A stretch of DNA of 64,000 nt from Candidatus Omnitrophota bacterium (GTDB taxonomy: Bacteria > Omnitrophota > Gorgyraeia > Gygaellales > Profunditerraquicolaceae). The notes below the pieces were generated by a model. The model was not told the origin of the DNA, did no database searches, and was given only the letters and a program-made list of their open reading frames with translations. Below, piece after piece: positions 11,364 through 60,624 of this stretch. Position numbers and translations under genes: made by a program. The stretch lies in the NCBI GenBank assembly GCA_018825985.1, contig JAHKAP010000002.1, positions 650 through 64,649 on the forward strand. Direction: 5' to 3'. How positions within the stretch are numbered: position 1 is the first letter of the stretch; each line of letters begins with the position of its first letter.

Positions 11364-11591
11364 ATGTTTGATGTATTAATCGTAACTACAGAAAAGGTTC
11401 TATTCGAGAATAAGGTAAAGAGCCTGGTTTTGCCCGGGGAACACGGGGTATTCGAAATATTAGATTACCATAAGCCGGTAATGGCCAGGCTTATGGGAGG
11501 CAATATCTTCGCCGGTGTAAACGTATTTAAGATCTGCCGGGGCATAGTTGGTTTTAGTAAAAATAAAGCAACGGTTATCGTCGAACAGTAA
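11364..11591 (+). CDS. atpC: F-type ATPase epsilon subunit, truncated form of 75 aa with the beta-sandwich domain only
   Basis: FDVLIVTTEKVLFENKVKSLVLPGEHGVFEILDYHKPVMARLMGG aligns with the E. coli epsilon N-terminal domain ([41 protein letters not shown]). The C-terminal helical hairpin is absent. Confidence 0.7.
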   Translation: MFDVLIVTTEKVLFENKVKSLVLPGEHGVFEILDYHKPVMARLMGGNIFAGVNVFKICRGIVGFSKNKATVIVEQ

Positions 11592-11711: not shown

Positions 11712-11924
11712 ATGGATAAGAACCTATCATTACTATTGATTTTTACCTCTTGTATTATAGGTCCGTGCTGGGTTTTTGCCGCTTGCGCGAAATCCAGCAT
11801 CAATGCTCTTGGACGTAACCCGTCCAGCGCACCCAAGGTTTTTATCGCAATGATCATTACCTTGATTTTCGCTCAGGCAGCGGCCTTGATCGCGATGCTT
11901 ATTGCGTTCCAATTATTCAGTTAA
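11712..11924 (+). CDS. atpE: F-type ATPase c-subunit-like proteolipid, 70 aa and two helices, with Gln at the position of the conserved ion-binding carboxylate
   Basis: Two hydrophobic helices joined by an ALGRNPSSAPK loop (compare ARQPE/ARNPE). The residue 20 positions after the loop Arg is Q (codon cag) where E/D is conserved. Helix 2 contains no acidic residue. A GAGGG ribosome-binding site lies upstream. Confidence 0.65.
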   Translation: MDKNLSLLLIFTSCIIGPCWVFAACAKSSINALGRNPSSAPKVFIAMIITLIFAQAAALIAMLIAFQLFS

Positions 11925-16516: not shown

Positions 16517-17005
16517 ATGTCAGGAGATCATAAACGTATCGGAGAGATATTGATCGAAAAAGGGTTGATCACTGAGGCCCAGTTGCATGATGCTTTAATG
16601 GAACAACAGGTAAATTCAAAATTTTTAGGGGCGATTCTGGTAAGCAAAAATTTGATCACCAATGATGATCTGATCGAGTCTTTGGCCAGTCAGTTCGGCA
16701 TCCCGCTGGTAGATATAAAGAGCCATTATGTAGATATGGAACTGGCCCGGAAATTCTCCTCATCGCTTATACTTGACCACAAATGTTTTCCTTTAATTGA
16801 AGATGAGTCAAGCGTGACCGTAGCGATCATTAATCCGCTGGATGCCTTGGCAATCAGCAAGATCGAAGAAGCTTGTATGCCCCGGGAAGTAAAATTAGTC
16901 CTGGTTAAAGAGGAAGATATGAAGAATGTCTTAGCCAGTTTCAGGCTATATATTAATAAGAGCATACAACAGATGCTGAAGAAAGATAAAAAGCCAAATG
17001 AATAA
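16517..17005 (+). CDS. Standalone MshEN / T2SS-E N-terminal domain protein with tandem c-di-GMP-binding-type motifs
   Basis: RIGEILIEKGLITEAQLHDALMEQQ and FLGAILVSKNLITNDDLIESLASQ match the MshEN motif RLGxxLxxxGxIxxxxLxxxLxxQ. The rest resembles the GspE N-terminal domain. Overlaps the next gene by 8 nt (ATGAATAA). Confidence 0.6.
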   Translation: MSGDHKRIGEILIEKGLITEAQLHDALMEQQVNSKFLGAILVSKNLITNDDLIESLASQFGIPLVDIKSHYVDMELARKFSSSLILDHKCFPLIEDESSVTVAIINPLDALAISKIEEACMPREVKLVLVKEEDMKNVLASFRLYINKSIQQMLKKDKKPNE

Positions 17006-19148
17006 AGTTGATTCGCTGCTTTATGACGCCCTGATCAATAAAGGGATAGCCGCAAAAGATACCCTTGACCTCCTGATTAAGGAATCCGATGGGAGTTCCC
17101 AGAACCTGGTATCGATATTAAGTAAGCGGGGCGATTACAGCGAAGCGCAGATACTGAAGGTCTTAGCTGAAAAAACCGGTTTGGCTTTCCTGGACCTTAA
17201 GAATGTTGCTGTGCCTGAAGACATCACGGAGAAAATACCAGTAAAGATCGCCACCTATTATCGATTTCTGCCTATAGAGATAAAAGGCAGGATTTTGATC
17301 TGCGCGGTATCGTATCCATTGGATATCAAGATCCAGGATGAGATCCGCAACCAGCTGGGGTATGATATCGAACTTGTTCTGGCGGTTACCGAGGATATAG
17401 TCGAAGGCTTGAGAAAATATTACGGCCTGGCTGCGGATACTCTTGAGAAAATCGTATCCCAGGTCCCTAAAGATAGCGCTTCTTATCAGGATCCGACTCA
17501 GAAGATCGATGATATTGAGAAATTGGCCGAAGACGCCTCGGTTATAAAATTGGTTAATCAGATAATCCTGGAGGCGTTTCGTAAGCGGGCGACTGATATC
17601 CATATTGAGCCGTTCAGGGAGAGCGTGGCCATCCGTTATCGTATCGACGGATTGCTTTATGACGCGAACATCCCGGCTGAGGTTAGGAATTTTCTGGGGG
17701 CGATCATTTCCAGGATCAAGATCATGTCAAATCTAAATATTGTTGAGCACCGTCTCCCCCAGGACGGAAGGGCAGTAGTAAAGGTCCAGGAGCAGATATT
17801 GGACTTAAGGATTTCTACTATACCTACTCCTTTTGGAGAGAGCGTGGTTATTCGTATTCTTCCGACACAAATGCTTTTCAGCCTGGAAAGACTAGGATTG
17901 TCCAAAGGTGATCTGACTGTATTTGAAGATCTGATCAAAAAACCGCACGGAATAATATTTGTGACCGGGCCTACCGGAAGCGGAAAGACCACTACACTTT
18001 ACGCCTCTTTGACCAGGATCAATACCCGGGACCGTAAAATAATCACTATCGAGGATCCTATTGAATATGAAATGTCCGGGATAACCCAGATCCAGGTAAT
18101 GCCGGAGATTGGCCTGGATTTTGCCAGGGGCCTTAGGAGCATGCTCCGTCATGATCCGGATGTAATAATGGTAGGAGAGGTTCGGGACTTAGAGACTGCG
18201 GAGATCGCTATCCGGGTAGCTCTCACCGGGCATTTGATATTTTCTACACTGCATACTAATGACGCAGCCAGCGGCATAACCCGTTTAGTTGATATCGGTT
18301 TGGAGCCATATTTAGTCGCTTCCAGCATTGAGGCTTTTGTGGCCCAGCGCTTGATCCGGTTGATCTGTCCGGATTGCAAATATGAGGATAAAGTAATCGC
18401 GAACGAAGTCCGGCAGTTGATCGCCGGAGAACTGGGATTAAAATCGCCCCAGGAGGTTAAATTATACCGAGGTAAAGGATGCGCCAACTGTAACTTCAGC
18501 GGATTCTTCGGCCGGACCGCAATCTATGAAATCCTTTTGGTAGATGAACAGACAAAAGAGCTGATTGTGAAGAAGTCAGCTTCTAACCGGATAAAAAATC
18601 TGGCTGTTTCTAAGGGTATGCGCACCTTGCGCCAGGATGGGTGGCAGAAAGTTATCAAGGGCCTGACCACTCCCGAAGAAGTAATGCGGGTAACTTCTAT
18701 AGAGGAGATCAGAGAAAAGCCCCGGGAAGAAATTATTAGTCCGGGTATTGCCATTCGCGAAGATGAACAGAGCCGTCCGCTTTTGGATTCGGAAAGAAGG
18801 ATTTATAATCGTTTAGGAAGCAAGATAAACCTGCGTTATAAACCTTTTAAGAATGTTCAGGAATTGACTGATCGGGGATTTACCCTTGAGCAATTGAGCG
18901 TAACCAGGAATATTTCCGCCGGGGGCATATTATTTGTTTCTTCGGAGATCATTAATATCGGCACTTTCCTGGAATTAAAATTAGAATTGCCGAATAATGA
19001 AGAAGTGGTCAATTGTTTGGCCAGGGTGGTGCGGGTTGAAGAGCTTGCCGAAGGCAAGAGTTATGATGTGGCGGGAGTTTTTCTGGATATTACTTCTGCC
19101 CAGCGGGCCCGTTTAGATAAATATGTAATTAAAGGACTTGAGGAATAA
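16998..19148 (+). CDS. gspE: GspE/PilB-family secretion/pilus assembly ATPase with a C-terminal PilZ domain
   Basis: N-terminal GspE_N-like domain. Walker A GPTGSGKTTTLYA. Tetracysteine CPDC...CANC. The C-terminal roughly 120 aa carry the PilZ motifs RIYNR (RxxxR) and NISAGG (D/NxSxGG). Confidence 0.85.
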   Translation: MNKVDSLLYDALINKGIAAKDTLDLLIKESDGSSQNLVSILSKRGDYSEAQILKVLAEKTGLAFLDLKNVAVPEDITEKIPVKIATYYRFLPIEIKGRILICAVSYPLDIKIQDEIRNQLGYDIELVLAVTEDIVEGLRKYYGLAADTLEKIVSQVPKDSASYQDPTQKIDDIEKLAEDASVIKLVNQIILEAFRKRATDIHIEPFRESVAIRYRIDGLLYDANIPAEVRNFLGAIISRIKIMSNLNIVEHRLPQDGRAVVKVQEQILDLRISTIPTPFGESVVIRILPTQMLFSLERLGLSKGDLTVFEDLIKKPHGIIFVTGPTGSGKTTTLYASLTRINTRDRKIITIEDPIEYEMSGITQIQVMPEIGLDFARGLRSMLRHDPDVIMVGEVRDLETAEIAIRVALTGHLIFSTLHTNDAASGITRLVDIGLEPYLVASSIEAFVAQRLIRLICPDCKYEDKVIANEVRQLIAGELGLKSPQEVKLYRGKGCANCNFSGFFGRTAIYEILLVDEQTKELIVKKSASNRIKNLAVSKGMRTLRQDGWQKVIKGLTTPEEVMRVTSIEEIREKPREEIISPGIAIREDEQSRPLLDSERRIYNRLGSKINLRYKPFKNVQELTDRGFTLEQLSVTRNISAGGILFVSSEIINIGTFLELKLELPNNEEVVNCLARVVRVEELAEGKSYDVAGVFLDITSAQRARLDKYVIKGLEE

Positions 19149-20367
19149 TATGATCTATAAATATAAGGCTAAGAACGGACCGGAAAATTCAGTAGAAGGA
19201 AAGATATCCGCCCAGTCAGAAAATGATGCGATCGAAAAAATTACCCAAATGGGCTATGTGCCGGTAAGCATCCAGGAAGAAGCCCAAAATCAAAGGCAAT
19301 CCAGGGTTTTTAATCTAAATTTTAGCTTCGCCAGGGTTAGTTCTCAAGACATAACGATTTTTAGTTCTCAATTGGCCAGCCTGCTTAAATCCGGAGTGCC
19401 TTTTTTGAATGCCATAAACATAATATCCGAACAGTCGGAGAACCCGAATTTCAAGAATGTTCTTAAGAACATCCACAATATAGTAAAAGAAGGGTCTGAT
19501 TTTTCTACAGCCCTTAGCCAATATCCTTCAGTTTTTTCCCCGCTTTACCTGGCTATGGTGCGCACCGGTGAAAATAGCGGGCAGCTGCCGGAAGTGCTTT
19601 TAAAGATTGCGGAATACCGCAAGAAACAGGAGGAGGTGCTCTCACGCCTGCGCATGGCCATGGCCTATCCGATCCTGATGGTAATCGTTGGTTTAGGGAC
19701 GATTATTTTTATGTTAACTTTTGTTATTCCCCGCCTAACCAGGCTTTATTCGAACATGGGCCAGGTATTACCCCTGCCAACCAGGATCCTGATAGCTTTA
19801 AGCGATGGATTAAGACAGTGGTGGTTATGGATAGTAATATTTTTAGTGCTTTTGGTTACTCTTATCCGGCGTCAGGCTCAGACTGATGCGGGCAGGTTAT
19901 CGATTAGTATCCTTAAACTGCGCCTGCCGATCTTCGGTAAATTAATGCTTAAATCTGAATTAGGCCGGTTTTGCCGGACCCTGGAGTTATTGATAAAAAG
20001 CGGAGTGCCGATCCTGCGGGCGATCCACATAAGTATACCGGTTTTAGGCAATGAGGTTATAAAATTAAAATTCAAGAAAAGCTATAAAGACCTGGAACAG
20101 GGCGGTTCTTTCGGATCAAGCCTTAAGGATTCCAGGGTAATACCGGTATTTATGAGTAATCTCATTATAGTTGGCGAGCAATCCGGCAGGCTTTATGAGG
20201 CCCTGGCTGAAGTCGCGGGTACTTATGAGCGCGATACTGATGAGGCTATTAAGACCATGAGCAGCCTTTTGGAGCCGATAATGGTTTTGGTAATGGGCCT
20301 GGTCGTGGGATTTATTGTAGTAGCTATGCTTTTACCGATATTTGAGATCAATATGATGGTGCGTTAG
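19138..20367 (+). CDS. gspF: GspF/PilC-family inner-membrane platform protein
   Basis: 409 aa. Two T2SS-F-type repeats (..LLKSGVPFLNAI.., ..LIKSGVPILRAI..) and 3 TM segments. Confidence 0.85.
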   Translation: MRNNMIYKYKAKNGPENSVEGKISAQSENDAIEKITQMGYVPVSIQEEAQNQRQSRVFNLNFSFARVSSQDITIFSSQLASLLKSGVPFLNAINIISEQSENPNFKNVLKNIHNIVKEGSDFSTALSQYPSVFSPLYLAMVRTGENSGQLPEVLLKIAEYRKKQEEVLSRLRMAMAYPILMVIVGLGTIIFMLTFVIPRLTRLYSNMGQVLPLPTRILIALSDGLRQWWLWIVIFLVLLVTLIRRQAQTDAGRLSISILKLRLPIFGKLMLKSELGRFCRTLELLIKSGVPILRAIHISIPVLGNEVIKLKFKKSYKDLEQGGSFGSSLKDSRVIPVFMSNLIIVGEQSGRLYEALAEVAGTYERDTDEAIKTMSSLLEPIMVLVMGLVVGFIVVAMLLPIFEINMMVR

Positions 20368-20422: not shown

Positions 20423-21292
20423 GTGCCTATTATCGTAGTTCCGAAGAAAATAACCCTCCTTTTGCTCATACTTTCAATTCTTTGTTCAATAAACAGCTCA
20501 GCGGCTTCAGACTGGAAAGAATTAAGTAGCGAGCATTTTATACTTTATTATATGAACGATGAAAATTTTTCTTCTCAGGTTTTGAATAAAGCTGAGAATT
20601 ATTATCAGCGGATCGCTTCGGACCTGGGCTATGCCAGGAATTCTAACTTTTGGACCTGGAATAATAGAGCAAAGATATATATATATCCCGATCACGGTTC
20701 TTTTATGAGATCAACCGGCCAGCCTGACTGGTCTAAAGGGATGGCTGATTATAATAAAAAGGAGATAGTCAGCTTTTTGGGTTCGGGAAGTTTTGTAGAA
20801 TCGATATTGCCGCATGAGATGACTCATTTGATCTTTCGGGATTTTGTGGGATTTAAGGGTGAGATCCCGCTCTGGCTGGAAGAGGGCATCGCTCAGTGGG
20901 AAGAAGAGAAAGACAGGGAGATGTTTAGGGATTATCTCGGGAAATATCTGAGCAAGAATCTCCTTATATCCCTAGAAGAGCTCAATGTCCTGGATATACG
21001 AAACATTAAAAAAGAAGACCGGCTTTATTTAAGGGTAATATACGCCGGCGAGTCTAAGGGATTTCCGGTATTCTTAAGCGGGGATAATCTGGTTAAAGTA
21101 TATTATATGGAATCGGTGTCTATAGTAAGTTTTCTTATTGAAATATACGGAACGGATAGTTTTGTTTCCCTCTGCCGCGGATTGCGGGAAGGAAAAACTT
21201 TTGCGGACGCTTTAAAATCAGCTTATTCTCCGTTGATAAATTCTATGTCAGAACTTGAAAATAAATGGATTGAATATCTGCGGAAGTTTTAA
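20423..21292 (+). CDS. Secreted HExxH zinc-metallopeptidase-like protein (HEMTH...EEG), GTG start, signal peptide
   Basis: N-terminal MPIIVVPKKITLLLLILSILCSINSSAASDW resembles a signal peptide. Motifs LPHEMTHLIF and EEGIAQW. Embedded between gspF and gspG. Confidence 0.5.
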   Translation: MPIIVVPKKITLLLLILSILCSINSSAASDWKELSSEHFILYYMNDENFSSQVLNKAENYYQRIASDLGYARNSNFWTWNNRAKIYIYPDHGSFMRSTGQPDWSKGMADYNKKEIVSFLGSGSFVESILPHEMTHLIFRDFVGFKGEIPLWLEEGIAQWEEEKDREMFRDYLGKYLSKNLLISLEELNVLDIRNIKKEDRLYLRVIYAGESKGFPVFLSGDNLVKVYYMESVSIVSFLIEIYGTDSFVSLCRGLREGKTFADALKSAYSPLINSMSELENKWIEYLRKF

Positions 21293-21312
21293 CTAAGCAA
21301 GGGAGGTATTTT

Positions 21313-21717
21313 ATGAAAAGGATTAAAGGCTTTACACTTATCGAATTGATGCTGGTCGTTGTAATTATTGGGGCATTGGTAGCTATGGTAATGCCGCGGC
21401 TGACCGGCAGAAGCGAGCAGGCCAGGACTACCGCCGCTTCAGCTGATATCCAGGCTAATATCGCTACCGCTTTAAAGCTTTACGAACTGGATAACGGCAA
21501 TTTTCCTACCACGGAAGAAGGTTTAAACGCCCTTTTAACCAGGCCGGCTAGCGCGAGGAATTGGAGCGGGCCATATTTAGAGAGAAAGCCGATTGACCCT
21601 TGGGGCAGGGAATATAATTATAAGTGCCCGGGTGAACACCGGCCGGCGGATTATGATTTGTATTCTTTAGGCAAGGATGGCGCAGAAAGCCCCGATGATG
21701 TTAAAAACTGGGAATAA
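21313..21717 (+). CDS. gspG: GspG-like major pseudopilin with prepilin leader
   Basis: KGFTLIELMLVVVIIG prepilin cleavage/methylation motif (G|F, E+5). C-terminal DPWGREYNY..PG....DYDLYSLGKDG..SPDD is GspG-like. Confidence 0.85.
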   Translation: MKRIKGFTLIELMLVVVIIGALVAMVMPRLTGRSEQARTTAASADIQANIATALKLYELDNGNFPTTEEGLNALLTRPASARNWSGPYLERKPIDPWGREYNYKCPGEHRPADYDLYSLGKDGAESPDDVKNWE

Positions 21718-22096
21718 AGGGTTTACACTAATTGAGGTGTTAGTTGCTGCCGCGGTTTTATCCTTGGGATTGGTATTTATTTACGAAGCTTTTTTTATCT
21801 CGTTGGATACCTTTAGATATTATTCGGATTACCTGAATATCGCTCCCAAAGCGGAGGAAATACTCTGGCTCACTCAGGATTCGCTGATCCGTACAGGCGT
21901 GGTTTATAATATGGACCAGGCAGGAGGATCAGTAATAAACGACAGCAGCGGTATTCTCTTGAATTTTAATATAGCCAGTAGCCTTGTAGATGACAAATAC
22001 GGCCTTTACGAGGTTGGTTTAAATGCTGTTTGGAAGAATGGAAAAAGATTGCGCAGCACAACCCGGGACAGTTATGTTATCCGCCAAATTAAATAA
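21695..22096 (+). CDS. Minor pseudopilin with prepilin leader
   Basis: MMLKTGNKGFTLIEVLVAAAVLSLGL. Start placed at the ATG at 21695, in frame with track ORF 21677. Confidence 0.7.
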   Translation: MMLKTGNKGFTLIEVLVAAAVLSLGLVFIYEAFFISLDTFRYYSDYLNIAPKAEEILWLTQDSLIRTGVVYNMDQAGGSVINDSSGILLNFNIASSLVDDKYGLYEVGLNAVWKNGKRLRSTTRDSYVIRQIK

Positions 22097-22151
22097 CCGT
22101 CCCGCACCTTCTAAAAAATTAAATGATTTTAAAACAAATGGTTTTAGTATT

Positions 22152-22730
22152 ATGAATAGAAAAGAAGGTGCGGGGTTCACCCTTATAGAGTTATTGATGG
22201 TTGTTTCAATGCTTTCAGTCATCTCCCTGGCTATTTTTTCTACTTTTAATAACGGGATAAAAATCTGGCAGAAGGTTAATAAACAATCAGATCGCGAGGA
22301 TATCAATATTTTTCTTGATAAGTTTGTCTCGGACTTGAGGAACACCCTTAGTTTTACCGGAATAAGTTTTATCGGGACTGAAAATAAAATCAGCTTTCCC
22401 CGTATAGTTAATAGCAAAAACCTGGTTGTGAATACGGTCGGTAGGATTATTTACAGTTATGATGACGGGGCGCGTTTAATTTTCCGCCAGCAGCAGGATT
22501 TTTCTCAGGTTGCCACAGATAAAGAATCTTTTAACCAGAGAGTATTAGGAAATGTTACATCGTTTAGATTCCAATATTATCATTATGATACCGATAAAAA
22601 AGAATATCTTTGGCTTAAAGAATGGAATAGTTTGCAGACGCCTTTAGCGGTAAGAATCGAATTCGAGAATTTAAATAAAGATAAAAAGGCTGAATTTACA
22701 AGAAGTGTTTTTATACCGGTAGGTTTCTAA
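22152..22730 (+). CDS. Minor pseudopilin (GspJ-like size) with prepilin leader
   Basis: MNRKEGAGFTLIELLMVVSMLSVISLAIF. Start at the ATG at 22152 inside track ORF 22023. Confidence 0.7.
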   Translation: MNRKEGAGFTLIELLMVVSMLSVISLAIFSTFNNGIKIWQKVNKQSDREDINIFLDKFVSDLRNTLSFTGISFIGTENKISFPRIVNSKNLVVNTVGRIIYSYDDGARLIFRQQQDFSQVATDKESFNQRVLGNVTSFRFQYYHYDTDKKEYLWLKEWNSLQTPLAVRIEFENLNKDKKAEFTRSVFIPVGF

Positions 22731-22732
22731 GA

Positions 22733-23749
22733 ATGCTGAAAAAAAATAACCCCGCTCTTAAGGCGAGCATACTAATTATTAGCCTTTGGACGGTTTGTTT
22801 GCTGTCCATATTTTGCGTGTATTTAGGGTATAATGTCCGGCAAAAGATAACTCTGGTCAAGCGCCTGGAAGAGAGGAATAAGCTTTATTATATCGCCGAC
22901 GCGGGGGTAAAAAAAGCGATTGTCTGTTTGTTAGGCGTTGATCCGGAAATTGAGTATATGGCGCTCAATGGTGATTGGGCAGATAACCCCGGGCTATTCC
23001 AGGACATTGATTTTAATGGAGGAAGTTTTAGCGTCGGCTATAATTATTCTTCCGGAGGCGCAACTCAGACCAGATACGGACTGGTAGACGAGGAGCGCAA
23101 GGTGAATATAAACACGGCTGATGCCGGAGTGCTGCGGCGTTTATTTCAATTAGTTCTAAATTTTTCGGAAGGGGAGGCCTCAGGCTTAGCTTATTCGATT
23201 ATTGATTGGAGGGATAGCGACAACCAGTTATCCGACTCCGCAAGAGGAGCAGAGTCCGCCTATTATCATTCGCTTAAATACCCTTATAGCTGCAAGAATT
23301 CCGAATTTGAGATTTTAGAAGAGGTCCTTCTTATTAAAGGAATGAGTGAGGATATTTCTAACAAGATCAAAGACTATATTACTATATACGGCGATGGGCG
23401 GGTAAACATTAATACCGCGTCTTTGGAGGTTTTACTGGCTTTGGGATTAAGCCCGAAGATCTGCGCTGATATAATCGAATTTAGAAAAGGTAAGGACGCG
23501 GCAGAAGGCACAACCGATGATAATTTTTTTTCTCAAAATTCGGATATTGCCACGCGCCTTCAAACAAGGTATAATTTAAACCAAATAGAAATGGCTGAAG
23601 TAGAGAGCGTGGCCTCAAATTACCTGTCGTGTAATTCGTTTTTTTTTATGATCCGCAGTGTCGCCAGGCTCACAGATAAAAAGAATCAACTGGAAGTAAT
23701 TTGCGTTGTCAACAGGTTGGGTGATATTTTATATTGGCGGGAGACGTAA
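22733..23749 (+). CDS. gspK: GspK-like pseudopilin tip protein
   Basis: N-terminal KASILIISLWTVCLL hydrophobic segment lacking E5. Two KVNINTA-type helix-hairpin-helix motifs (RKVNINTADAGVL, RVNINTASLEVL). Confidence 0.7.
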   Translation: MLKKNNPALKASILIISLWTVCLLSIFCVYLGYNVRQKITLVKRLEERNKLYYIADAGVKKAIVCLLGVDPEIEYMALNGDWADNPGLFQDIDFNGGSFSVGYNYSSGGATQTRYGLVDEERKVNINTADAGVLRRLFQLVLNFSEGEASGLAYSIIDWRDSDNQLSDSARGAESAYYHSLKYPYSCKNSEFEILEEVLLIKGMSEDISNKIKDYITIYGDGRVNINTASLEVLLALGLSPKICADIIEFRKGKDAAEGTTDDNFFSQNSDIATRLQTRYNLNQIEMAEVESVASNYLSCNSFFFMIRSVARLTDKKNQLEVICVVNRLGDILYWRET

Positions 23750-25197
23750 TGTTTATATCGGGAATCAGGCGAAGGGACCTGGTAGGAATAGAGTTCGGCG
23801 CTAATAAGCTTAAACTTGCTTATCTGCGTTGTTTAGGCGGCAAACGGGAATTAGCCGGTGTTGTCAGTAAAGATACGCTCGGATGCTCGGATACCGATAT
23901 CTCGGGTGTTATTCTTGCCTTTCTTAACCAGCATAATATCAAGAACCCGGAGTTTATCAGTGTCATATCATCCAGCTCGGTAATAACTAAGAACATAGAA
24001 GTGCCCTCGGTTGATCCCCAAGAGATCAAGGGGATCATAAATCTCCAGGCTGCCAGGCATACGCCTTATTCCCGCGAAGAGATCATCGTCGACTATATAG
24101 ATATAGGTAATTATAAAAATAACTATACCAAAATATTGCTGGTGATAGTAGTCTCGAGCCTTATAAAAAAATACGTTGAAATCTTAGGGGGGGCCGGTTT
24201 AGGGATTGAAAAAGTACTTTTGGCGTCCGAGGGTATGGCCTGGGCCGCTATGCATATCCTTAAAGTCGAAAATAAGGATATCCCTGTTTGCCTTCTGCAC
24301 ATAGATGAGAATTCTAGCGATTTTGCGATTGTCTTTAAGAATAAATTGGCCTTTATCCGCTCTATACCTATAGGGGCTAAGGCGCTATCGGGTGAGTTCG
24401 ATATACAAAAGGATAAATATTGCGAAGAAGTAAAAAAATCCATGGAATCATATCAAGGCGAGGACATAGAAAAAAATCCCGGGAGTATTTTGATTACCGG
24501 GGCTATTGATGGGCTAAAAGGCCTTGAAACCGCTTTATCCCTGGCGTTGAATAAGGATAGCCGGGTGGTCCCGTATTTAAGGAATATTTCTATTTCTAAA
24601 GATCTTTTAAAAAGCATAGATGTATCAGCGGCTTCATATTTTAATCTGGTGAGCCCTCTATTGGCTTGTGATGATATGTTGGTTGATCTTATTCCCGAAG
24701 AGGCAAAGATAAAAAAAGAGCTTGAGGCCAGGGGAAGGGACTTGATTAAAAGCGGGATTCTAGTCCTGACTTTTTTTATTCTGGTATTTTTTATTTTAAT
24801 GAGCAAAATTTATTTTAAAAGTTTTTATTTAAATAAAATCGACTCCCGCTATAAAGGTATCAATCAGGAAGCCTCTAAACTGGAGAAAGATTTTGACCGG
24901 ATAAACCTGATTAAGAATTATCTGGGGAAAAGGGGGTATCCTCTGGAGATCTTGACTGAGATTTACGGACTTTTACCACTGCAGATAGAATTAAGCGATC
25001 TGCGTTTCGACGAACAAGGAAAATTCGTAGTCCGGGGGAGTGCGGAATCGATGTCCACGGTTTTTAGTTTCGTTGACGAAATGGAGAGGTCTAAATATTT
25101 TAAAGACGTAAAGACCAAGTATACCACCCGGCGCAAGCAGGATAAGAAGGATGTTACCGATTTTGAGATAAACTGCCTGCTGGAAAAGGAAGGATAA
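23734..25197 (+). CDS. GspL-like / PilM-PilN fusion: cytoplasmic actin-like domain, TM helix, periplasmic domain
   Basis: N-terminal LVGIEFGANKLKLAYL (PilM-like). TM helix ILVLTFFILVFFILMS near residue 340, then a periplasmic segment of about 130 aa. Confidence 0.6.
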   Translation: MAGDVMFISGIRRRDLVGIEFGANKLKLAYLRCLGGKRELAGVVSKDTLGCSDTDISGVILAFLNQHNIKNPEFISVISSSSVITKNIEVPSVDPQEIKGIINLQAARHTPYSREEIIVDYIDIGNYKNNYTKILLVIVVSSLIKKYVEILGGAGLGIEKVLLASEGMAWAAMHILKVENKDIPVCLLHIDENSSDFAIVFKNKLAFIRSIPIGAKALSGEFDIQKDKYCEEVKKSMESYQGEDIEKNPGSILITGAIDGLKGLETALSLALNKDSRVVPYLRNISISKDLLKSIDVSAASYFNLVSPLLACDDMLVDLIPEEAKIKKELEARGRDLIKSGILVLTFFILVFFILMSKIYFKSFYLNKIDSRYKGINQEASKLEKDFDRINLIKNYLGKRGYPLEILTEIYGLLPLQIELSDLRFDEQGKFVVRGSAESMSTVFSFVDEMERSKYFKDVKTKYTTRRKQDKKDVTDFEINCLLEKEG

Positions 25198-25754
25198 TGA
25201 TAAAACTAGAGGCCATCAATTCATTCCTGGCCCGTTTGAACAAAAGAGAAAAGCTTATCTTGTACTGCGCTCTAGCCGTTATCTCGCTGACCCTCTTGGA
25301 CCGGCTGGTTATAAGTCCGGTAACATCCAGGATCCAGGGATTATCAGCAGAGATTCTTGATAAACATACCGCTATTAAAAGAAGCTTAAAGATCCTATCT
25401 CAAAAAGACAAAATATTGGCTGAGGCCGCTAAGTATAACCCTTATCTCGATGGGTTAAAAAGCGAAGATGAAGAGATGACCAGCATATTAAGGGAGATCG
25501 AAGGGTTGGCGAACAAAAGCTCGGTTTATCTGTTCGATCTCAAACCCTCCGGGGTAAAGGATATGGGCCCGTTTAAGAAATATTTTGTAACCTTAAGCTG
25601 CGAGGCTCAGGTTGAGCAGCTGGTTGGATTTTTTTATGGAATAGAGAATTCCGATAAATTGCTTTCGATCGATAAATATCAATTGATGCCCAAATCCAGC
25701 GAATCATCTGTGGCTAAATGCTCGATGACCATCTCTAAAATGACATTGCCTTAA
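25197..25754 (+). CDS. GspM/PilO-like bitopic inner-membrane component
   Basis: 185 aa. N-terminal TM helix LILYCALAVISLTLL, then a soluble domain. Position after the GspL-like gene. Confidence 0.5.
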   Translation: MIKLEAINSFLARLNKREKLILYCALAVISLTLLDRLVISPVTSRIQGLSAEILDKHTAIKRSLKILSQKDKILAEAAKYNPYLDGLKSEDEEMTSILREIEGLANKSSVYLFDLKPSGVKDMGPFKKYFVTLSCEAQVEQLVGFFYGIENSDKLLSIDKYQLMPKSSESSVAKCSMTISKMTLP

Positions 25755-59577: not shown

Positions 59578-60624
59578 ATGGAAATACGCGACCTATTGTT
59601 ATTGTGTATCGAAAAGCAAGCTTCTGATCTTCATCTTACAGATAATGAGCCGCCGATATTACGTATTGACGGAAGGCTGCAAAGGACAAACCTGCCGGTC
59701 TTAAATAAAGAAATCCTTAAAAAGATTATTTATAGTGTTTTGAATGATACTCAGAAAGAAACGTTTGAGAAAGATATGGAATTGGATTTTTCTCTGGCTC
59801 TTCCCGCATTGGATAGGTTCCGGGTAAATGTACATCTGCAAAAAGGCTCAGTTGAGGCTGCTTTTAGACGGGTGCCCTTGAAAATTCCGGTCATCGCAGA
59901 TATAGGCTTACCGCCCATAGCAATTGAGTTAGCCCGTAAACCCAATGGTTTAGTTCTGGTTACCGGTCCTACCGGAGTTGGTAAAACCACTACTTTAGCG
60001 GCAATGATCGACCTTATAAATAATGAGAGAGAATGTATGGTTATGTGCGTTGAGGACCCGATCGAATTTATTCATTCTAATAAAAAGAGCGTAATAAAAC
60101 AAAGAGAGATTTATGCGGATACCCGTTCATTTGCCGATTCTTTACGCCATGCCTTGCGTCAGGACCCCAATGTTATAGTTGTCGGAGAGATGAGGGATTT
60201 GGAAACTATTTCCACAGCGCTTACAGCCGCAGAAACCGGGCATTTGGTTTTGGCTACCCTGCATACTCCTGACGCCCCGCAAACCGTGGAAAGGATTATT
60301 GATGTATTTCCTCCTCATCAGCAGACCCAGGTTAAACTACAGTTATCCGATTGTTTACAGGGCGTAATTTCGCAGTTGCTCCTTCCCCATATCTCCGGAA
60401 AGGGTAGAGTTTTAGCTACCGAGATAATGATTGCTACTTCGGGGATAAGAAACCTTATTCGTGAACAGGAGATCGAGCAGATCCCTACTTTGATGCAGAC
60501 CGGAAGTCAGTATGGGATGAAGACAATGGATAAATGTTTAAAAGAATTGTATCAACAAGGGTTGATATCTTTGGATGTGGCTATGTCCAAGGCTAAGAAT
60601 ATCGAGGAATTCCGCCAGCTATGA
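59578..60624 (+). CDS. pilT: PilT-family twitching-motility/retraction ATPase
   Basis: 348 aa. GLVLVTGPTGVGKTTTLAAMID, VEDPIEF, NVIVVGEMRDLETISTALTAAETGHLVLATLHT, GIRNLIREQ. Confidence 0.9.
   Translation: MEIRDLLLLCIEKQASDLHLTDNEPPILRIDGRLQRTNLPVLNKEILKKIIYSVLNDTQKETFEKDMELDFSLALPALDRFRVNVHLQKGSVEAAFRRVPLKIPVIADIGLPPIAIELARKPNGLVLVTGPTGVGKTTTLAAMIDLINNERECMVMCVEDPIEFIHSNKKSVIKQREIYADTRSFADSLRHALRQDPNVIVVGEMRDLETISTALTAAETGHLVLATLHTPDAPQTVERIIDVFPPHQQTQVKLQLSDCLQGVISQLLLPHISGKGRVLATEIMIATSGIRNLIREQEIEQIPTLMQTGSQYGMKTMDKCLKELYQQGLISLDVAMSKAKNIEEFRQL

Follow-up and report, generated by a model that had tools for sequence, protein, structure and literature searches.

Does the motor ATPase of a machine related to a type II secretion system (T2SS) or a type IV pilus (T4P) carry its own receptor for cyclic di-GMP (c-di-GMP)? 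This question is raised by a locus of a Candidatus Omnitrophota bacterium (assembly GCA_018825985.1, contig JAHKAP010000002.1, positions 650 to 64,649 of the forward strand). The 64,000 nucleotides (nt) analysed are called the window, and all positions refer to it. One open reading frame (ORF) in the window encodes a GspE/PilB-type ATPase fused to a C-terminal PilZ domain. The fusion is probably the motor ATPase that drives assembly or secretion in a T2SS/T4P-like machine, with a c-di-GMP receptor of its own, and the PilZ domain is, judging from its sequence, most likely a sensor in cis that gates the motor. The features of the fusion gene on which this reading is based are as follows (aa, amino acids).

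16998..19148, plus strand: whole ORF of the ATPase-PilZ fusion, 716 aa, in a single uninterrupted frame
17526..18689, plus strand: T2SSE ATPase core, aa 177-564 (Pfam PF00437, 434 bits)
17967-17993, 18153-18188 and 18225-18260, plus strand: Walker A, Walker B and His box, from motif location
18366-18377 and 18480-18491, plus strand: tetracysteine zinc site, from motif location
18693..18794, plus strand: variable acidic disordered linker, aa 566-599 (about 34 aa), from model confidence and alignment
18795..19145, plus strand: canonical PilZ domain, aa 600-716, with RRxxxR loop, beta-barrel and C-terminal helix (Pfam PF07238, structure prediction and Foldseek)
18795..18812, plus strand: RRIYNR, the first c-di-GMP motif (RxxxR with the preceding Arg, R600), aa 600-605, from motif search
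18849..18893, plus strand: family-specific insert KNVQELTDRGFTLEQ between strands b1 and b2, predicted to form two short helices, from alignment and the domain-only model
18909..18926, plus strand: NISAGG, the second c-di-GMP motif ([D/N]hSxxG, where h is Ile), aa 638-643, from motif search

An earlier note, made from the sequence alone, had placed an ORF with a GspE/PilB ATPase core at 16998-19148, and these coordinates proved to be exact. Three domains exceeded the Pfam gathering thresholds in the 716-aa product: MshEN/T2SSE_N, T2SSE and PilZ. The Walker A sequence GPTGSGKTT named in the earlier note was located at aa 324-332, and the CxxC...CxxC zinc site it described was found as CPDC (aa 457-460) and CANC (aa 495-498). 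The residues of the Walker A, Walker B, His box and tetracysteine zinc motifs were invariant in an alignment of 62 homologues. As read from these motifs, the ATPase part is catalytically intact and of the hexameric type. Its scores against the NCBIfam equivalog models were below the cut-offs for both GspE (TIGR02533, 588.7; cut-off, 630.25) and PilB (TIGR02538, 549.7; cut-off, 675.65). By these scores, the ATPase is a member of the superfamily outside both named orthologue groups, nearest to GspE and then to PilB. The 716-aa protein was 100% identical to an NCBI protein (P0001) from a 'Candidatus Omnitrophota' metagenome-assembled genome (MAG).

The claim of a PilZ domain at the C terminus was examined with PF07238, whose gathering cut-off is 22.5 bits. 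The profile matched aa 632-711 with 42.6 bits (E = 8e-11) when the whole protein was searched and with 46.3 bits (E = 5.6e-12) when the last 127 aa were searched alone, which supports the PilZ assignment. The two signatures reported for this region, RIYNR and NISAGG, were both present and in correct register against Pseudomonas aeruginosa MapZ. When family members and related stand-alone PilZ proteins were aligned with MapZ/PA4608 in MAFFT as a test for misaligned motifs, R601/R605 fell on MapZ R9/R13, and N638-I-S640-A-G-G643 fell on D35-V-S37-L-H-G40. The MapZ sequence used agreed with all residue numbers quoted by Galperin and Chou. An hhalign comparison of the family profile with MapZ paired RNISAGGILFVS with HDVSLHGILVGQ; this match covers only 12 residues around NISAGG, is without significance and serves as a register check only. 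When all ORFs of 100 aa or more in the six frames of the window were searched, the combined pattern RxxxR-x(15-40)-[D/N]hSxxG occurred a single time, in the 716-aa ORF. In the homologue alignment, R601 and G643 were invariant, and Y603, R605, I639, S640, A641 and G642 were each at least 90% conserved.

The PF07238 alignment begins at profile position 23, and RxxxR lies outside the aligned stretch because the family has an insert of about 10 aa between strands b1 and b2. The spacing between the two motifs is accordingly 32 aa in the fusion, compared with about 23 to 27 aa in many related stand-alone PilZ proteins. The family consensus of the insert is KSxEELxKRGFTPEQ, in which G627 and E631 are at least 90% conserved, and its two predicted helices span residues 25-30 and 35-38 in the numbering of the AlphaFold2 (AF2) model of aa 596-716. 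No Pfam match to PilZN (YcgR_N) or YcgR_2 was found in the 716-aa protein; an ATPase precedes its PilZ domain, so it is unlike the YcgR-like proteins. The C-terminal region is thus a canonical PilZ domain whose b1-b2 insert is unusual.

Searches of the PilZ region against PDB sequences with phmmer and profile hmmsearch gave no PilZ matches and only spurious ones (E of 0.014 or worse). The region is too diverged in sequence for such a search, and a fold search was therefore used. The AF2 model of aa 596-716 (predicted local distance difference test score [pLDDT], 79.6; predicted template modelling score [pTM], 0.72) was a PilZ beta-barrel followed by a long C-terminal helix. In the full-length model, six barrel strands were called (611-616, 636-640, 643-648, 657-663, 671-684 and 688-695), followed by a helix at 700-715; the domain-only model had five strands and the helix, with strand 636-640 uncalled. 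The best Foldseek matches in the PDB were PilZ structures: MotI/DgrA (5vx6), MrkH, Alg44 with c-di-GMP, BcsA, PP4397, XC1028 and Xanthomonas citri PilZ. The barrel is tethered to the ATPase by the linker, where the pLDDT of aa 570-601 was below 50 in the full-length model and no alignment consensus was seen. Among 127 homologues, the linker had a median length of 31 aa and a median net charge of -5, and its charge was never positive.

A database survey of PilB/GspE-PilZ fusions had been proposed in the earlier note, and when it was run, PF07238, PF05157 and PF00437 were found together in 120/120 of the best homologues (63-100% identity, about 702-737 aa). Both PilZ motifs were present in 117 of these 120 proteins, mostly with the 32-aa spacing. 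In a species survey, one genome per GTDB species was scanned with family-specific patterns; 142 relatives were recorded and 80 loci fetched. Every complete ORF among the fetched loci was an ATPase-PilZ fusion. Of 76 GTDB species loci, 74 retain both motifs, and the two exceptions carry NIGAGG. A Lys or Arg precedes RxxxR in 60 of the 74 loci, and the middle residue is Tyr or Phe in 71 of them. When the most divergent full-length member (49% identity) served as the query, the matches were again fusions labelled Omnitrophota only, followed by PilB proteins without PilZ; the nearest PilZ-less relatives were ordinary PilB proteins of 574 aa with 60% identity. A PilZ-profile search of 1.84 billion cluster representatives, which carries no taxonomy, gained almost no names from a cluster look-up and is without power to show fusions outside Omnitrophota, yielded chiefly C-terminal pieces of this fusion family, located on short contigs, together with stand-alone PilZ proteins. 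On this comparative evidence, the ATPase-PilZ architecture is conserved phylum-wide in Omnitrophota and is no peculiarity of one genome, and both ligand-binding motifs are, from their retention, under strong purifying selection across the phylum.

The same survey bears on whether the fusion is an artefact, in which mis-assembly, a frameshift or a missed stop merged an ATPase gene with the pilZ gene beside it. A few deep-branching loci (L071, L074 and L075) do have stand-alone PilZ paralogues next to the ATPase gene, but the ATPase in these loci is still fused to PilZ and the free copy is additional. The ORF in the window is uninterrupted, and the identical architecture was found in independent NCBI, JGI, ENA and Logan assemblies and in single-amplified genomes, with PilZ domains of 38 to 100% identity. 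The artefact reading has a negligible probability and was rejected on these comparative data.

Several variants of the architecture were seen in the same material. The free paralogue of the deep-branching loci, a 161-aa PilZ protein with the same motifs, is encoded between gspE-PilZ and gspF (L071:2326-2811, L074:7654-8139 and L075:4659-5144), and this clade is without the small MshEN gene described below. The paralogue has an N-terminal extension of about 45 aa that by eye resembles the N terminus of GspF/PilC, and similar proteins of about 160 aa were common in the cluster-representative search. One 206-aa protein (P0179, JGI/Logan) has an MshEN_N-like N terminus followed by a PilZ domain of the fusion family; it would unite both types of c-di-GMP module in one small protein. 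Contigs with the same synteny were labelled Planctomycetales/Planctomycetia, Deltaproteobacteria, Margulisiibacteriota or Patescibacteria (L003, L004, L011, L012, L055, L060, L079 and others); these labels are probably MAG mislabels.

Motif retention also bears on the proposal of a PilZ domain that works as a protein-protein adaptor without need of a ligand, as do the Pseudomonas and Xanthomonas PilZ proteins that bind PilB but not c-di-GMP, and that is here fused to its partner. PilZ proteins are known partners of PilB and touch its ND0/ND1 region, and the ATPase of the fusion retains such a domain. [quoted passage not shown] Here 74 of 76 species keep both motifs, a degree of retention that is difficult to account for if no ligand is bound. 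In the fold search, the PilZ structures of X. citri and Xanthomonas campestris also ranked lower than PilZ domains that bind a ligand. The features of the non-binding 'type II' PilZ subgroup (PA2960 and XAC1133) are absent from the fusion, in which both motifs are present and conserved. A ligand-free adaptor is therefore very improbable.

A second c-di-GMP module was claimed in the earlier note for the protein encoded upstream. The features of this protein and of the N terminus of the ATPase are as follows.

16517..17005, plus strand: stand-alone MshEN-type protein, 162 aa (Pfam MshEN, 51 bits; NCBIfam NF053729)
16535..16693, plus strand: 53-residue MshEN c-di-GMP motif as defined by Wang et al. 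(2016), with half-motif I RIGEILIEKGLITEAQLHDALMEQ (strict match), a 5-aa spacer and half-motif II FLGAILVSKNLITNDDLIESLASQ
16998..17177, plus strand: degenerate ND0 or MshEN_N-like four-helix region, ATPase aa 1-60, from predicted helices and motif loss
17178..17432, plus strand: N1E or MshEN_C subdomain, ATPase aa 61-145 (Pfam PF05157, 60 bits)

The claim was supported by both profile libraries. NF053729, the model of the MshE-type c-di-GMP-binding motif, matched the 162-aa protein with 64.8 bits (cut-off, 38) over positions 1-53 of 53. The stop of this ORF overlaps the ATPase start by 8 nt, and its own start lies 4 nt past the end of atpD. The protein also matched the crystal structure of Vibrio cholerae MshEN with c-di-GMP (5HTL; E = 7e-11) and the GSPII domains of Thermus PilF (E = 2e-25). 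It aligns collinearly with ATPase aa 12-141 (22% identity) and is therefore a free paralogue of the ATPase ND0/ND1 region.

According to Wang et al. (2016), the MshEN motif consists of a tandem 24-residue RLGxxhhxxGhhxxxxLxxxLxxQ separated by a 5-aa spacer. Half-motif II of the 162-aa protein keeps LG...L...L..Q, with R38 replaced by Phe and the turn G47 by Asn (V. cholerae MshE numbering). Of the 12 key residues listed by these authors, 10 are identical, one is changed conservatively (L10 to Ile) and one is really changed (R38 to Phe). The orthologues are alike, with a good motif I and a motif II of the form [FL][LI]G...L..AL.EQ. Wang et al. noted that perfect conservation of the motif may be dispensable, and in their comparison the non-binding XpsE had eight changes in the key residues. 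With so few key changes compared with eight in XpsE, c-di-GMP binding by the 162-aa protein is likely on sequence grounds. The small MshEN gene was present in 48 of the 63 species loci that show the upstream region (about 76%), was double in 2 and was missing in 15. Compensation in cis in the loci without it was considered and rejected, since an intact MshEN motif in cis was found in 0 of these 15.

The ATPase itself differs from its small neighbour. In its first 60 aa, the two Gly, two Gln and two Arg residues of the MshEN motif are all replaced, much as in the non-binding XpsE, and by this comparison the PF05157 match covers only the non-binding C-terminal subdomain of MshEN. No match to NF053729 was found in the ATPase in the NCBIfam scan, and a relaxed MshEN motif occurred in the N terminus of only 1 of 120 homologues. 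The ATPase has lost its own MshEN motif, and the PilZ domain is therefore the only predicted c-di-GMP site in cis. PilZ would thus be the universal predicted c-di-GMP module of the machine and MshEN a frequent accessory acting in trans. Elsewhere among the fetched loci, a CheA-like histidine kinase (L045:14157-16355) has a complete tandem 53-residue MshEN motif (RLGDILVEKHIISEDELSEALVHQ, 5 aa, KIGEILVEKGAATKTQVERGLKEQ), which suggests c-di-GMP input into chemotaxis-type signalling in Omnitrophota.

From these features, a working of the fusion can be proposed. c-di-GMP would bind to the RRxxxR loop and the NISAGG strand of the PilZ domain, probably as an intercalated dimer, because a Lys or Arg precedes RxxxR. 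Work on PP4397 and VCA0042 reportedly indicates that a basic residue at this position favours the intercalated dimer. The RRxxxR loop sits at the junction of tether and barrel; ligand binding should therefore order or rigidify this junction and re-position the barrel. The re-positioned barrel, the basic C-terminal helix, a conserved surface (CLARVVR, FLD and R703) and the insert may then pack against the ATPase or a partner, and the candidate docking partners are ATPase ND0/ND1, the GspL-like PilM-N protein and the small MshEN protein. The c-di-GMP level would thereby be coupled to the activity or the engagement of the motor. [quoted passage not shown] The stand-alone MshEN protein would be a second receptor acting in trans, probably with higher affinity, and a mimic of the ATPase N terminus; the 8-nt overlap suggests that its gene is translationally coupled to the ATPase gene. 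More speculatively, it could compete for the GspL/PilM partner, or bridge to it, in a c-di-GMP-dependent manner.

The sign of the response is nearly balanced. Activation at high c-di-GMP is slightly favoured over braking, by analogy with MshE, Myxococcus xanthus PilB and FimX-PilZ-PilB, the documented PilB/GspE cases, in which c-di-GMP promotes assembly or activity. The PilZ domain could instead be a brake that, at high c-di-GMP, locks the ATPase or disengages it, in the manner of YcgR and MotI on the flagellar motor. The closest match in structure is indeed the Bacillus subtilis clutch MotI/DgrA, but this similarity is one of the generic PilZ fold only. A tethered domain docked by its ligand could equally block the dynamics of the hexamer, and the always-acidic linker could occupy the basic RRxxxR loop until it is displaced by the ligand, which fits either sign. 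In view of the documented cases, the brake is considered somewhat unlikely.

A cis c-di-GMP sensor on the motor ATPase thus remains the preferred reading, and the following points weigh against it. The Foldseek probabilities were about 1, but the E-values were weak (best, 9e-3) and the query-normalised template modelling score was about 0.5. AF2 confidence was low in the b1-b2 insert and the motif loop, and the pTM of the full-length model was 0.44, which makes its inter-domain contacts unreliable. Intact motifs are present in V. cholerae PlzA and PlzE, for which c-di-GMP binding has not been demonstrated. No gene for a GGDEF, EAL or HD-GYP protein was found in the 64-kb window.

The fusion can be compared with several known systems. 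In the X. citri PilB-PilZ(-FimX) and P. aeruginosa PilZ (PA2960) systems, as here, a PilZ-fold protein is in physical contact with a T4P assembly ATPase and ties it to c-di-GMP signalling, and the ND0/ND1 region of PilB no longer binds c-di-GMP, being likewise degenerate in the fusion. In X. citri, free PilZ binds PilB ND0/ND1, and with FimX the ATPase activity is raised about 3-fold. In the fusion, in contrast, PilZ is covalently attached at the C terminus and has canonical motifs, so that a FimX-like intermediary would be unneeded. The MshEN-type ATPases (V. cholerae MshE, P. aeruginosa PA14_29490, M. xanthus PilB, Clostridium perfringens PilB2 and Thermus PilF) are alike in that a dedicated receptor domain puts a T2SS/T4P ATPase under direct c-di-GMP control, and they require c-di-GMP for pilus assembly. 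Their receptor is the N-terminal 53-residue motif in cis, whereas here the ATPase copy of this motif has degenerated, only the separate small protein retains it, and the predicted cis receptor is the C-terminal PilZ domain.

BcsA and Alg44 share with the fusion a canonical PilZ domain whose RxxxR lies in the linker to the output domain. When BcsA binds c-di-GMP, its linker arginine R580 leaves an inhibitory salt bridge and turns to the ligand. The output of these proteins is a membrane glycosyltransferase or co-polymerase, whereas that of the fusion is a soluble hexameric AAA+-like motor, and no counterpart of the BcsA gating loop is known in the fusion. YcgR and MotI likewise place a motility motor under PilZ-based c-di-GMP control, and MotI is the best fold match to the PilZ domain of the fusion; they are, however, free proteins of two domains (PilZN-PilZ) whose target is the flagellar stator or rotor, and the fusion is without PilZN.

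No description of a T2SSE-PilZ fusion was found in the literature searched, although absence there is no proof. Reviews of PilB regulation and of c-di-GMP receptors describe for PilB/GspE ATPases only MshEN in cis and PilZ/FimX in trans, and the known fusions of PilZ to other outputs include BcsA, Alg44, chemoreceptors, a Ser/Thr kinase and DnaK. The architecture is visible in public databases through automatic Pfam labels on homologues. In their description of the surroundings of giant genes in Omnitrophota, West-Roberts et al. reported T2SS-like loci, small pilZ genes and GGDEF domains, and the ATPase-PilZ fusion is unmentioned. Since c-di-GMP control of T2SS/T4P ATPases is already established, the covalent architecture is new but conceptually unsurprising. 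With it, a hexameric secretion ATPase would join the output domains known to be fused to PilZ. In PilB/GspE motors, the MshEN domains are flexible, and nucleotide binding often leaves the ATPase rates in vitro unchanged. The single polypeptide fixes receptor and motor at 1:1, which makes the fusion tractable for cryo-electron microscopy and biochemistry. The fusion is kept over a phylum of largely uncultured and probably host-dependent nanobacteria and would mark the machine as a c-di-GMP-controlled output.

The identity of this machine is indicated by the genes downstream of the ATPase gene, which are as follows.

19138..20367, plus strand: GspF/PilC platform protein, whose start overlaps the end of the ATPase gene (Pfam T2SSF, 208 bits)
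20423..25754, plus strand: rest of the machine, seven genes, from Pfam and other annotation, in an order shared by dozens of species loci
20423-21292, plus strand: secreted HExxH (HEMTH) peptidase of the MA clan with a signal peptide, a conserved member of the cluster
21313-21717, plus strand: GspG major pseudopilin with the classical G|FTLIE leader
21677-22096, plus strand: minor pseudopilin
22023-22730, plus strand: GspJ-like protein
22733-23749, plus strand: GspK-like protein
23734-25197, plus strand: PilM-PilN fusion
25197-25754, plus strand: GspM-like protein

By these annotations, a T2SS-like cluster adjoins the ATPase gene, with GspF, the GspG/J/K pseudopilins and GspL/M-like assembly proteins. 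The platform protein scored 385 bits against the GspF model TIGR02120, below its cut-off of 424. No gene for a secretin or an A24 prepilin peptidase was found within the secretion cluster. Upstream of the MshEN gene are genes for a 3,689-aa repeat-rich surface protein and for F-type ATPase subunits. The order in the window from 85 to 25754 is giant repeat-rich surface protein, short epsilon, c, b/delta fusion, alpha, gamma, beta, (MshEN), GspE-PilZ, GspF, HExxH peptidase, GspG, pseudopilin, GspJ, GspK, PilM-N and GspM, with the genes tightly packed. This full order was kept across most fetched species loci of sufficient extent (L002-L080).

A more far-reaching reading of this arrangement can be considered. 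The fusion would be the first ATPase of the type IV filament superfamily gated in cis by c-di-GMP via PilZ, and it would form a two-threshold switch together with the MshEN protein, which would act in trans as a 'decoy' of the ATPase N-terminal domain. The pair would be the control unit of a phylum-specific super-operon, composed of the giant surface protein, the atypical F-type ATPase genes and the T2SS-like machine, for attachment to or attack on host cells. In this full form, the reading is doubtful.

The F-type genes have unusual features of their own. The c-like subunit (11712-11924) has Gln at the position of the usual ion-binding carboxylate (LIFAQAAAL), and among 37 aligned orthologues Gln was by eye commoner than Glu at this site. 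The short epsilon protein (11364-11591) is a 75-aa beta-sandwich only, and no a-subunit gene was seen in the operon at any locus. The ATPase genes ahead of the secretion genes may therefore encode no normal chemiosmotic ATP synthase.

Two further genes were noted. At one locus, a REC-PilZ response regulator of 245 aa (L026:12603-13340) is inserted between gspF and the peptidase gene. In the window at 59578-60624, the gene of a PilT-like ATPase of 348 aa (T2SSE, 145 bits) separates those of the large and small subunits of an aconitase-family LeuC/LeuD-like enzyme, which hints that the filament system may be retractile.

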